A DNA stretch of 17,018 nucleotides from a virus. Lineage: Duplodnaviria; Heunggongvirae; Uroviricota; Caudoviricetes. Location of the stretch: the IMG/VR virus record IMGVR_UViG_2606217117_000010. One strand, written 5' to 3'. The position numbers and the translations under genes are program-made. Under the pieces are notes generated by a model. It searched no databases. It saw only the letters and a list, made by a program, of their open reading frames with translations, and had not been told where the DNA came from. Of the stretch, positions 1,722 to 4,765 are shown one piece after another; within the stretch, counting starts at the first letter, position 1; every line of letters starts with the position of its first letter.

Positions 1722-2084
1722 GTGAATACCTACAGCATCACATTACCCTGGCCTCCGAGCAATAATCGCTATTACCGCCATAATCGCGGGCGCACGCACG
1801 TCAGCGCAGAGGGGCAGGCATACCGCGATAACGTCGCCCGAATCATTAAAAACGCAATGCTGGATATCGGCCTGGCTATGCCTGTGAAAATCCGCATTGA
1901 GTGCCACATGCCGGATCGCCGTCGCCGTGACCTGGATAATCTGCAAAAAGCCGCTTTTGACGCACTCACTAAAGCAGGTTTCTGGCTGGATGATGCTCAG
2001 GTCGTTGATTACCGCGTTGTGAAGATGCCTGTTACCAAAGGTGGGAGGCTGGAACTGACCATCACCGAAATGGGGAATGAATGA
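1722..2084 (+). CDS. rusA: crossover junction endodeoxyribonuclease RusA (Holliday junction resolvase)
   Basis: 120 aa [47 protein letters not shown]...[31 protein letters not shown] matches E. coli DLP12 RusA as I recall it. GTG start with upstream GAGGGGG RBS. Confidence 0.9.
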
Positions 2085-2221
2085 TGTTTGAGTTTAATAT
2101 GGCAGAACTTCTTCGCCACCGCTGGGGGCGTCTGCGCTTATATCGTTTCCCCGGTTCTGTTTTGACCGATTACCGAATACTGAAGAATTACGCCAAAACC
2201 CTGACAGGAACAGGAGTATGA
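2081..2221 (+). CDS. ylcG: YlcG-like small phage protein (46 aa)
   Basis: Below the ORF-track threshold. ATG at 2081 overlaps the rusA stop (ATGA). Translation [46 protein letters not shown] matches DLP12 YlcG as I recall it and occupies the same rusA-ylcG-Q position. Confidence 0.5.
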
Positions 2222-2306
2222 AGTCAGAGATAACAATCAACTAATACTGTTTTGTTGATTTTTGCTTGTAATTGGCGTTCTGGTCTGATTTTTGTGGAGT
2301 AAGTTG

Positions 2307-2690
2307 ATGCGTGATATTCAGATGGTTCTTGAGCGTTGGGGTGCGTGGGCGGCTAATAATCATGAAGATGTGACCTGGTCGTCCATTGCCGCCGGTTTTA
2401 AGGGATTAATTCCTTCAAAAGTAAAATCTCGCCCGCAATGTTGTGACGATGACGCGATGATCATTTGCGGGTGCATGGCCCGTCTGAAAAAGAACAACAG
2501 CGATTTACACGATTTATTAGTAGATTATTATGTATGTGGTATGACATTCATGTCACTGGCAAGTAAGCATTGCTGCTCGGATGGTTATATCGGGAAAAGG
2601 TTACAGAAGGCTGAGGGCATAATTGAAGGGATGTTAATGGCATTAGATATCCGGTTAGATATGGATATCGTTGCTAATAATTCTAATTGA
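2307..2690 (+). CDS. quuD: late-gene antiterminator Q (phage 82 / DLP12 QuuD type)
   Basis: 127 aa [62 protein letters not shown]... is cysteine-rich (putative Zn site) and matches 82-type Q/QuuD as I recall it. GGAG RBS at 2296-2299. The ORF-track TTG at 2292 is an upstream extension. Confidence 0.85.
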
Positions 2691-2827
2691 TATGCAATTG
2701 TTTACTAAAAGTTATTAAAAATGGGGCGTGGAAACGCCCCCAAAATAAAGGGTAATATATAACAGAAGGTTTATATAGTAAGAAGCAAGGTAGTGCTTCT
2801 AAAGGAAGTGGCTTGAGGGCTCCACTT
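2691..2827 (+). promoter_or_regulatory. possible Q-proximal late promoter / qut region (location uncertain; alternative site at 4160-4205)
   Basis: Inference from lambdoid architecture, where PR' and qut lie directly downstream of Q and upstream of a terminator. An intrinsic terminator lies at 2828-2868, but I could not identify a convincing -35/-10 pair here. Confidence 0.25.
2711..2740 (-). terminator. rho-independent terminator of the porin gene (minus strand)
   Basis: Hairpin GGGGCG-TGGAAA-CGCCCC at 2723-2740. On the minus strand it is followed by ATTTTTAATAAC (reverse complement of 2711-2722). Confidence 0.6.
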
Positions 2828-2878
2828 ATATGTTGCGGAGGCAAAGCCTCCCGCAACATATCTTTTTCGTAAGTCAGA
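2741..2878 (-). ncRNA. ipeX: porin 3'-UTR with strong internal hairpin; candidate IpeX-like regulatory RNA
   Basis: Untranslated stretch between the porin stop (2879) and its terminator, containing the 14-bp-stem hairpin at 2828-2861. An sRNA (IpeX) has been described in the equivalent nmpC 3' region of DLP12 and phage PA-2, as I recall. Sequence identity to IpeX was not verified. Confidence 0.3.
2828..2868 (+). terminator. rho-independent terminator on + strand downstream of Q (tR'-like, or terminator of early rightward transcription)
   Basis: Stem ATATGTTGCGGAGG (2828-2841), loop CAAAG, stem CCTCCCGCAACATAT (2847-2861) with a 1-nt bulge, followed by CTTTTTCG. Confidence 0.6.
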
Positions 2879-3961
2879 TTAGAACTGATAAACCAGACCT
2901 ACAGCGACGATGTCGTCGGTATCAATACCAGCTGTTTTGGTAAACTTACTATCGTCAATTAAGTTGATTTTGTAATCAACAAAAGTAGACATGTTTTTAT
3001 TAAAGTAGTAAGTAGCACCGACATCGACATACTTGACTAAGTCTCGGTCACCATGAACACCAAGGTCTTTACCTTTTGACTGAAGGTAAGCAACAGATGG
3101 GCGCAGACCGAAGTCAAACTGATATTGTGCTACTGCTTCAAAGTTTTGTGCTTTGTTTGCAATATGGTTATTACCAAAAACGGTCATATTCTGAGTTTCA
3201 GAATATGTGGTAGCCAGATAGATATTGTTCGCATCATATTTCAGGCCTGCAGCCCATACTTCCGCATTTTTGCCGGAGGCATTGAATTTGCTCTTACCAT
3301 AGGCGACCTGACCGTCAGTGCGATCTGATTTAGCATAGGTTGCACCCACGCCGAATCCTTCATACTCATAAGTAGTGGAGAAACCGAAACCATCACCATT
3401 GGCTTCAGTTACGTCAGTGCGGTCATTTTTACCCTGATACTGAGCAGCAAAGTTCAGGCCATCGACCAGACCAAAGAAGTCGTTGTTACGATAAGTTGCA
3501 ACACCAGTAGTGCGACCAGTCATGAACACATCTGTTTGGGTCCAGGTATCACCACCGAATTCTGGCAGAACGTCAGTCCACGCACCGATGTCGTATGCTA
3601 CACCGTAGTTACGGCCGTAATCGATGGAGCCGTAATCACCAAATTTCAGGCCTGCAAATGCAAGACGGGTTTTGTCTTTGGAAGAACCTTGAGATTCAGC
3701 ACGGTTGCCTTTGAATTCATATTCCCACTGACCGAAACCAGTCAGTTGATCGTTGATTTGGGTTTCACCTTTGAAGCCAAGACGGGCATAAGTAGTATCA
3801 CCATCATCTGCATCATTAGAGGAGAAGTAGTGCTTGGCATTAACTTTCCCGTATAGATCCAGCTTGTTACTGTCTTTATTATAAATTTCAGCTGCCTGAG
3901 CAGACATCGCCATCAGTACTGATGCAGCTACAGCAGAAATTGCCACTGTTAATTTTTTCAT
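2879..3961 (-). CDS. nmpC: outer membrane porin, OmpC/PhoE general bacterial porin family (prophage NmpC / Lc type)
   Basis: 360 aa from ATG at 3961-3959. Signal peptide [23 protein letters not shown] followed by [16 protein letters not shown], and C-terminal ...VAVGLVYQF ending in Phe: hallmark porin features. Located between Q and the holin as nmpC is in DLP12. The ORF-track start at 4021 is an upstream extension. Confidence 0.9.
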
Positions 3962-4159
3962 TGTACGCCCTTTTTTTGAACTATTATTAAAAAATGATGT
4001 CACTGCGCGATAAATATTCATCTAATCAATGTGATTATTTCAAGATGTAAGTTTTAGTTTCTCATTTAATTTGTGAAGTAGATCTCTATTTTTATCTGAA
4101 CCTTTTCTATCTAATCCTATTCATGGCTCTTGTCTGAACAAAAATAAATCTATTAGCTA

Positions 4160-4205
4160 ATTTATATTAATGGCACTTATTTATAAGTGCTCTATAATTC
4201 TTTAG
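4160..4205 (+). promoter_or_regulatory. candidate sigma70 promoter (possible late promoter PR' driving a short terminated leader RNA)
   Basis: -35-like ATGGCA (4170-4175), 17-bp spacer, perfect -10 TATAAT (4193-4198). It lies about 190 nt upstream of the intrinsic terminator at 4388-4420, analogous to lambda PR'-tR'. The region is AT-rich, so a chance match is possible. Confidence 0.3.
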
Positions 4206-4387
4206 CTTAATTTAAACAAACTAAAAATAACATCGGAAATTATTAACTGATTATTTGTTGAAGTTTTCTTATGTATTTGTGGTGGTGTTTTGAACACTCG
4301 GTGGCATTCTCACAAATATCATTTAGTAGTTTACGTACGTAAAAAATTGGTTATGCTGTTAAGAGTGGTTACTTCGTCACACAGCTT

Positions 4388-4420
4388 AAACCCGCCGTCG
4401 AGCGGGTTTTTCCATTTTTT
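4388..4420 (+). terminator. rho-independent terminator on + strand, 130 bp upstream of the holin gene (tR'-like candidate)
   Basis: Stem AAACCCGC (4388-4395), loop CGTCGA, stem GCGGGTTT (4402-4409), followed by TTCCATTTTTT. Confidence 0.55.
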
Positions 4421-4549
4421 GAGTCTCGATATTAGCTGATAACCCAATACCTGAGTTATTCACTGACTCCGAATCTGTTACGTTTCTGCCTTTATTGCGA
4501 TACGTAATATCCCCTTAATTTACACCCGCTTTGTCTGCGAGGTGGGGTT

Positions 4550-4765
4550 ATGAAATCCATGGATAAGTTAACAACGGGTGTCGCCTATGGCACCTCAGCA
4601 GGTAGTGCCGGTTACTGGTTTTTACCGCTGCTCGATAAAGTCACGCCCTCACAGTGGGCAGCAATAGGTGTGCTGGGTAGCCTGGTATTTGGCCTGCTGA
4701 CGTACCTGACAAACCTTTATTTCAAGATTAAAGAAGATAAGCGCAAGGCTGCGAGAGGTGAATAA
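4550..4765 (+). CDS. essD: class II holin / pinholin (phage 21 S21 type) with dual-start motif
   Basis: 71 aa [71 protein letters not shown] has two TMDs and a basic C-terminus. Met1-Lys-Ser-Met4 is the antiholin/holin dual start. Matches S21 as I recall it. Confidence 0.9.

Follow-up and report, generated by a model that had tools for sequence, protein, structure and literature searches.

Small RNAs (sRNAs) derived from the 3' untranslated region (UTR) of an mRNA, such as CpxQ and SroC, are processed from that mRNA and share its terminator. An sRNA of the cryptic E. coli K-12 prophage DLP12, IpeX, is said to have been described by Castillo-Keller, Vuong and Misra in 2006; the lc gene region of phage PA-2 belongs to the same system. 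Convergent genes and bidirectional intrinsic terminators of E. coli were reportedly the subject of a SEnd-seq study by Ju, Li and Liu in 2019.

Passages of several papers state that IpeX lowers OmpC, and OmpF too (PMC12197685; PMC5069750; PMC3333887; PMC7177473), and one of them that it is reportedly processed from a longer porin transcript (PMC12197685); as for its dependence on Hfq, the published statements contradict each other (PMC5069750 among them). On the late side of lambdoid phages, Sy et al. report that the transcription start site (TSS) of PR' was mapped by dRNA-seq in Sakai, with an RNase E site GU|AUU at +173 and a 3' end at +258 (PMC7547250); reporter fragments starting 42 bp before the Q stop codon are described elsewhere as mitomycin-inducible in trans (PMC6266700).

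Gene Context of the Window

The window, i.e., the whole stretch of 17,018 nucleotides analysed here, represents the right arm of a lambdoid E. coli (pro)phage; the features discussed below are listed in Table 1. Its gene order is matched by the cryptic prophage DLP12 of K-12 MG1655, where the porin gene, nmpC, is split by IS5. Positions 2600-2950 are 100% identical to many E. coli chromosomes, including those of Nissle 1917 and ATCC 11775, in which the flanking genes are annotated as quuD and "porin OmpC", and the longer stretch 2292-4560 is 100% identical in viable phages, e.g., 2G7b and PhiR11_1; the porin annotation is shared by the matching genomes and phages. The porin gene, a moron expressed from a promoter of its own, gives rise to the IpeX precursor, and a spacer of 188 bp separates it (from 2879) from the end of Q (2690).

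Table 1. Coordinates of the features of the Q-porin-holin region, in order along the window.
Feature	Coordinates	Strand	Remarks
rusA	1722-2084	+	
ylcG	2081-2221	+	
quuD-type antiterminator Q gene	2307..2690	+	Start per annotation of identical records; open frame from TTG 2292; Pfam PF06530, E = 8e-54
ipeX homologue (167-nt sRNA gene and porin 3' UTR)	2715..2881	-	From porin stop codon to end of terminator U-run
Small hairpin GGGGCGT-GGAA-ACGCCCC	2723..2740	-	Terminator of the porin/IpeX transcript; U-run encoded at 2717-2721
IpeX nt 110-140	2742..2772	-	AU-rich, between hairpins; predicted ompC-pairing segment
IpeX stem-loop 3 (AGAAGCA / TGCTTCT)	2781..2800	-	From the fold
IpeX stem-loop 2 (AAGTGG / CCACTT)	2806..2827	-	From the fold; stem invariant, loop variable
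IpeX stem-loop 1	2861-2828	-	
Large hairpin	2828..2861		15 pairs and one bulge, loop AAA; IpeX 5' stem-loop on -, terminator-like on +
Phage porin gene, intact, NmpC/Lc/OmpD type	2879..4021	-	Stop codon 2879-2881; Pfam Porin_1, E = 2e-151
PR' homologue and terminator	4330..4415	+	-35 TTTACG 4330-4335, 16-nt spacer, -10 TATGCT 4352-4357, TSS ~A4364, hairpin 4388-4409, T-rich tail
P21-type holin gene	4550-4765	+	Followed by endolysin and Rz

Identification of ipeX

In MG1655, ipeX is given as the 167 nt of the reverse strand from 574365 to 574531 (supplementary material of PMC8313858), and the stop codon of nmpC lies at 574529-574531; ipeX therefore begins at the porin stop codon. Alignment of the K-12 quuD-nmpC spacer with our sequence puts ipeX on the minus strand at 2715-2881, with an identity of 93.8% over 191 nt, directly 3' of an nmpC/lc-type porin gene, on the same strand and before the Q gene. 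Judged by homology and position, these 167 nt are the ipeX gene of a DLP12/PA-2-type lambdoid (pro)phage, which is an already known and ordinary feature. The stretch 2711-2868, which an initial annotation of this DNA had read as nothing more than a pair of intrinsic terminators, thus falls almost entirely within ipeX: the terminator-like structures that it described are there, but the sRNA gene to which they belong had been overlooked. It follows that, on the minus strand, the large hairpin belongs to a functional RNA, whatever its role on the plus strand may be.

As a discovery, this carries little weight, since the terminator is ordinary and the sRNA gene, already described from a prophage, occurs in close to half of the complete E. 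coli genomes (2510 of 5426); the locus was also found in 36 phage records, including PA-2 and a 434/DLP12 hybrid. Its absence from annotation resources is of practical interest. Rfam 15, searched with the whole window at the gathering threshold and with 2600-2950 at E values up to 10, returned no credible family, ipeX being without one, and ipeX is missing from the RefSeq annotation of MG1655 that we examined, where micF is present (K-12 ipeX corresponds to 4366-4532 of our MG1655 locus). Because the inspected phage records lack it as well, annotation pipelines and sequence-only readers may take its hairpins for mere terminators. Some phage records place a "hypothetical protein" over ipeX.

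The ipeX-porin unit is kept in decayed DLP12 remnants that have lost Q, or Q together with the lysis genes (loci L088 and L090, from strains N68 and 720632). Across these two loci and those of BL21 (L093) and K-12 (L001), either Q and the lysis genes are missing or an insertion sequence (IS) replaces Q. Insertion sequences have also hit the porin gene more than once, with IS5 in K-12 and IS1 in BL21.

Hairpins and Their Tails

For the small hairpin, the minimum free energy is -13.8 kcal/mol when the minus strand is folded (z = -3.3 against dinucleotide shuffles) and -14.6 for the plus strand (z = -4.1), and our pattern scan ranked it second among terminator-like sites, on the minus strand with the tail ATTTTTAATA. 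Written as RNA, the 3' end of IpeX reads GGGGCGU-UUCC-ACGCCCC followed by AUUUUUAA, which is the make-up of a Rho-independent terminator. The large hairpin is more stable still, at -21.9 kcal/mol on the plus and -22.5 on the minus strand (z = -6.2 and -5.7), none of 200 shuffles being as stable; it is the second most stable 44-nt fold in 16,976 windows taken over both strands, i.e., in the lowest 0.1%. The pattern scan missed it, apparently because of its bulge.

On the plus strand, this large hairpin is followed by C2862 and then by T2863-2867. The T-tail scores are strongly strand-specific, with 2.35 (+) versus 0.20 (-) for the large hairpin and 2.39 (-) versus 0.07 (+) for the small one; a score of the d'Aubenton-Carafa type, calculated with modern energies, comes out negative for accepted terminators too and serves for relative comparison only. 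Each hairpin has a one-way U-tract, and neither shows the A-tract and T-tract around one stem that characterize a bidirectional terminator.

These results bear out a good part of the initial annotation. Coordinates, energy, and T-tail score all agree with a hairpin and minus-strand U-run at 2723-2740, and coordinates, energy, and one-way T-tract with a hairpin followed by CTTTTT on the plus strand at 2828-2861; the free-energy calculation that it had proposed as a check finds both stable (z from -3.3 to -6.2), so that an objection of weak stability fails. The minus-strand site also keeps its role as the terminator of porin-side transcription, as it ends the porin/IpeX transcript. The description of the pair as lying back to back holds insofar as both hairpins are in place, but their order is crossed: the porin-side terminator adjoins Q, and the putative Q-side one adjoins the porin gene. 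As each strand's terminator lies beyond the other's, transcripts ending there would overlap by about 150 nt (2715-2867).

IpeX Fold, Predicted ompC Pairing, and Allele Variation

Full-length IpeX folds at -53.6 kcal/mol (z = -6.1) and comprises, in order on the minus strand, a 20-nt leader starting from UAA, stem-loops 1-3, an AU-rich stretch, and the terminator. We searched for pairing with porin mRNA leaders by a windowed RNAduplex search, the unrestricted one giving only meaningless full-length duplexes. Nucleotides 110-140 of IpeX are predicted to pair with positions -32 to -6 of the ompC leader through 9 + 14 bp that cover the Shine-Dalgarno sequence; all of 30 dinucleotide shuffles (mean -19.8, sd 2.0) fell short of the energy of this duplex, -26.4 kcal/mol. 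This predicted pairing fits the published lowering of OmpC by IpeX during phage porin production. The windowed search found no significant pairing site for IpeX in ompF, although IpeX is reported to affect OmpF. Read on the plus strand, 2742-2772 resembles the ompC leader itself.

Allele variation was examined in a set of 21 distinct alleles, 89-100% identical to the window. Variable columns are rarer in the predicted stems (8 of 84) than outside them (25 of 85; Fisher p = 0.0016, uncorrected for relatedness). Among the 21 alleles, the stem of the small hairpin is nearly invariant while its loop reads GGAA, TGAG, TGCA, or TGAA; in the large hairpin, variation is confined to the loop and to a C/G plus G/A pair of changes, which switches the bulged base and so leaves 15 pairs in every allele. 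A covariation test on 20 distinct alleles found no compensatory double changes, because the alleles are too similar (at least 89% identical); the structures thus rest on thermodynamics and on the sparing of stems by variation. In stem-loop 3, four alleles change an A-U pair to G-U (minus strand) and two lose a C-G pair. Wobble changes able to discriminate between strands are split: in four alleles they would be tolerated on the minus strand alone, in two on the plus strand alone, and the stem-sparing test is silent on which strand is under selection.

Plus-Strand Role of the Large Hairpin

We infer at roughly even odds that 2828-2867 is a real plus-strand terminator. One reading goes further and makes this its primary role: the large hairpin would terminate the early-right (nin-Q) operon and be incidental in IpeX, and, with the crossed arrangement making Q-side 3' ends fully complementary to IpeX, early transcripts after induction would be antisense to IpeX and to the tail of the porin mRNA. 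The GC-rich 15-bp stem is indeed followed by CUUUUU, and the tail of one C and five U scores 2.35, near the 2.39 and 2.47 of neighbouring accepted terminators, even though the pattern scan makes no call there; the A-tract/T-tract asymmetry is that expected of a one-way terminator, and the hairpin is invariant except for its loop and bulge. The plus-strand T-tract, however, starts only behind a C and is not strictly conserved, with five T in most alleles and only four or three in five of them. Moreover, the hairpin is kept in the Q-less remnants L088 and L090, where nothing upstream is left to terminate, which fits a role on the minus strand, and PR is repressed in lysogens, so that little plus-strand transcription would arrive. 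We therefore take this reading seriously without favouring it. The supplementary tables of the 3'-end mapping study PMC7815308 hold no 3'-end entries for ipeX, quuD, nmpC, or essD.

One has to keep in mind which polymerase would reach the hairpin after induction. The phage PhiR11_1, whose sequence matches the window exactly over 2292-4560, carries N, cI, cro, cII, O, and P; with N present, polymerase that sets out from PR on induction would be modified by N and would not respond to 2828-2867, and only such N-modified polymerase from PR would cross it.

Among the best sigma-70-like sites of the window is TTTACA-16-TATTAT (10/12); it lies on the plus strand at 2504-2531, within the second half of the Q open reading frame (ORF), and faces ipeX. 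Going by its motifs, this site could be a candidate source of antisense RNA to IpeX ending at 2867, and 2828-2867 could stop unmodified transcription from weak internal starts of this kind.

In a more elaborate scenario, the crossed terminators would be functional as a pair: early N-driven transcripts would neutralise IpeX and the porin message through duplex formation and RNase III cleavage, thereby restoring OmpC or shutting off the moron in lytic growth, and the 5' stem-loop would have a dual use, giving structure to the sRNA on the minus strand and terminating transcription on the plus strand. We regard this as unlikely. If it were true, a plus-strand transcript ending at about 2867 would be perfectly complementary, over 150 nt, to IpeX and to the tail of the porin mRNA; the dual use of the 5' hairpin together with the 150-nt overlap makes a small, testable idea on the ways in which a moron may be shielded from lytic transcription or tied to it.

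Late Promoter of the Q Protein

The initial annotation had proposed that the two convergent terminators serve insulation, the plus-strand one being passed only by Q-modified polymerase, with antisense read-through of the porin gene as a likely feature of lytic induction; implicitly, this makes the plus-strand site tR'-like and the antisense transcription a Q-dependent late event. Both hairpins do have orientation-specific T-tracts, and the sigma-70-like site at 2504-2531 could feed transcription into the interval.

The Q protein of the window is 83% identical to Q of the Stx2 phage P13374 and a distant match to the solved Q21 structure. The coordinates of Sy et al. are offset by +142 from NC_002695.2, and what they call tR' is the second terminator. 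In the Sakai sequence (locus L005), taking A1346, 7 nt after TATCAT, as +1 puts the RNase E site at +173 and the end of the T-run of the second terminator at +258, exactly. Since all three landmarks (TSS, +173, and +258) fit, the mapped PR' is TTTACG-16-TATCAT, located where the Q gene ends; the mitomycin-inducible reporter fragments (PMC6266700) also support this placement. We had also considered a PR' inside the Q ORF, derived from the expression "258 nt from tR'", which would have upheld the initial annotation, and rejected it in view of the +142 offset, the identity of tR' as the second terminator, and the exact fit of the landmarks. In the Sakai block (L005 1312-1603), the first hairpin spans +26 to +49 and has 7 U behind it, yet it is read through in Stx lysogens, and the short PR' transcript has its mapped 3' end at +258, at the second terminator; in the window, only the first hairpin precedes the holin gene.

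The counterpart of this promoter lies about 340 bp past the porin start codon. Positions 4327-4411 are about 78% identical to a Stx-phage block overlapping the 3' end of Q, which the 933W record annotates as putative pR' (TTTACG-16-TATCAT), qut, and terminator. Across 80 IMG/VR loci, which were found via the porin and are all of one Q type, the PR' block is conserved at 95-100% and its flanks at 84-90%. An alternative identification of 4327-4411 as the short sRNA StxS was rejected, as the block consists of the promoter and the first hairpin. Next to Q itself, by comparison, the pattern scan found no promoter-like site between 2691 and 2827, i.e., from the Q stop to the hairpin, and hence no Q-dependent late unit at 2828-2867; the Stx promoter region shows no similarity to 2500-2880 past the homology of the Q coding sequence. 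Local alignment of the 3' region of Q, from Stx phages or from the window, with 4022-4330 gave nothing above shuffles.

If Q loads only at the PR' homologue, with its TSS at about 4364, Q-modified polymerase would never reach 2828-2867 or the porin gene. The read-through of 2828-2867 by Q-modified polymerase is thus not supported, the PR' homologue being downstream of the porin gene. Antisense transcription of the porin gene on induction loses its Q-driven form for the same reason, yet it could still occur through N-modified polymerase from PR. With the promoter of this Q family mapped and its homologue beyond the porin, no promoter near the hairpin, no Stx promoter similarity there, and IpeX left out of account, insulation with a Q-dependent terminator is very improbable.

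As far as the alignments tell, the ipeX-porin unit is inserted between Q and its promoter. A late promoter downstream of the porin insertion in porin-carrying phages corrects the regulatory picture for Q. In the Shigella phage SfII (L003, 829-2443), the same insertion point holds two unrelated minus-strand genes, with a Q of the PF06530 type on one side and the conserved late-promoter block on the other. The Q/PR' junction seems to be a place where morons insert repeatedly.

A further promoter-like site, ATGGCA-17-TATAAT, is found on the plus strand at 4170-4198, between the porin and holin genes; it precedes the PR' homologue and is directed toward the lysis genes. It may be related to the control of the DLP12 lysis genes by host factors (RpoE, Hha) that is mentioned in PMC7918800.

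Remaining Alternatives and Proposed Mechanism

A small protein is hardly credible as the product of the interval. There is an ATG-initiated minus-strand ORF of 58 aa at 2683-2859, and a few phage records have "hypothetical protein" features under the match; we rejected it, however, as it has no Pfam match and single-base indels between alleles (e.g., in the A-run 2741-2745 and at 2775) shift its frame, and the ORF also extends across the terminator and into the last part of Q. That the hairpins are palindromes arisen by chance in an AT-rich spacer between genes can be practically discounted: terminator-like patterns are not enriched window-wide (21 found versus 16.5 +/- 4.4 expected), but the z-scores of the two hairpins, the rank of the large one in the lowest 0.1% of local folds, the sparing of stems by allele variation (p = 0.0016), and the homology of the interval to a described sRNA gene all speak against it.

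We thus retain a minus-strand ipeX gene ending at 2740-2723, with Q acting only further downstream, as the overall explanation, to which we give a probability of about 85%. The porin moron would be transcribed leftwards from its own promoter; transcription would pass the porin stop codon and then the large hairpin, whose minus-strand form lacks a U-tract, and the transcript would end at the intrinsic terminator formed by 2740-2723 and the U-run. According to the literature, the 167-nt tail would then be released from the precursor by processing, and its AU-rich segment would, by our prediction, pair with the leader of host ompC over the ribosome-binding site. On the plus strand, the CUUUUU after the large hairpin would probably end unmodified transcription coming from Q, so that in lysogens the ipeX-porin unit would be shielded. 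Once induction has occurred, N-modified polymerase coming from PR would not stop at 2828-2867, while Q-modified polymerase would start at about 4364.

Comparison with Known Systems

The locus is closest to IpeX of K-12 DLP12, with which it shares its position, its length of 167 nt, about 94% identity, the stem-loops, and the complementarity to the ompC leader. It differs in that the porin gene of the window is intact whereas K-12 nmpC carries IS5, and by about 10 substitutions or indels, mostly in loops, among which a C-to-G change alters the bulged base of the 5' stem-loop.

Like CpxQ and SroC, IpeX shares the terminator of the coding gene upstream of it and is reportedly processed from a longer transcript; unlike these 3'-UTR-derived sRNAs, it is phage-borne and targets the host paralogue of the gene that it trails, and the statements on its relation to Hfq conflict.

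The lambdoid PR'-qut-tR' cassette, known from lambda 6S RNA and from StxS of Stx phages (PMC7547250), resembles our locus as a short, promoter-proximal terminated unit near the Q gene. Here, in contrast, the cassette is found at 4330-4415, split from Q by the ipeX-porin insertion, whereas 2828-2867 has neither promoter nor qut homology.

Finally, as with the bidirectional terminators of E. coli, two convergent units would end in a short spacer and their predicted 3' ends overlap; the difference is that a single hairpin flanked by an A-tract and a U-tract is replaced here by two one-way terminators (the plus-strand one putative), placed in crossed order, with an overlap of about 150 nt.
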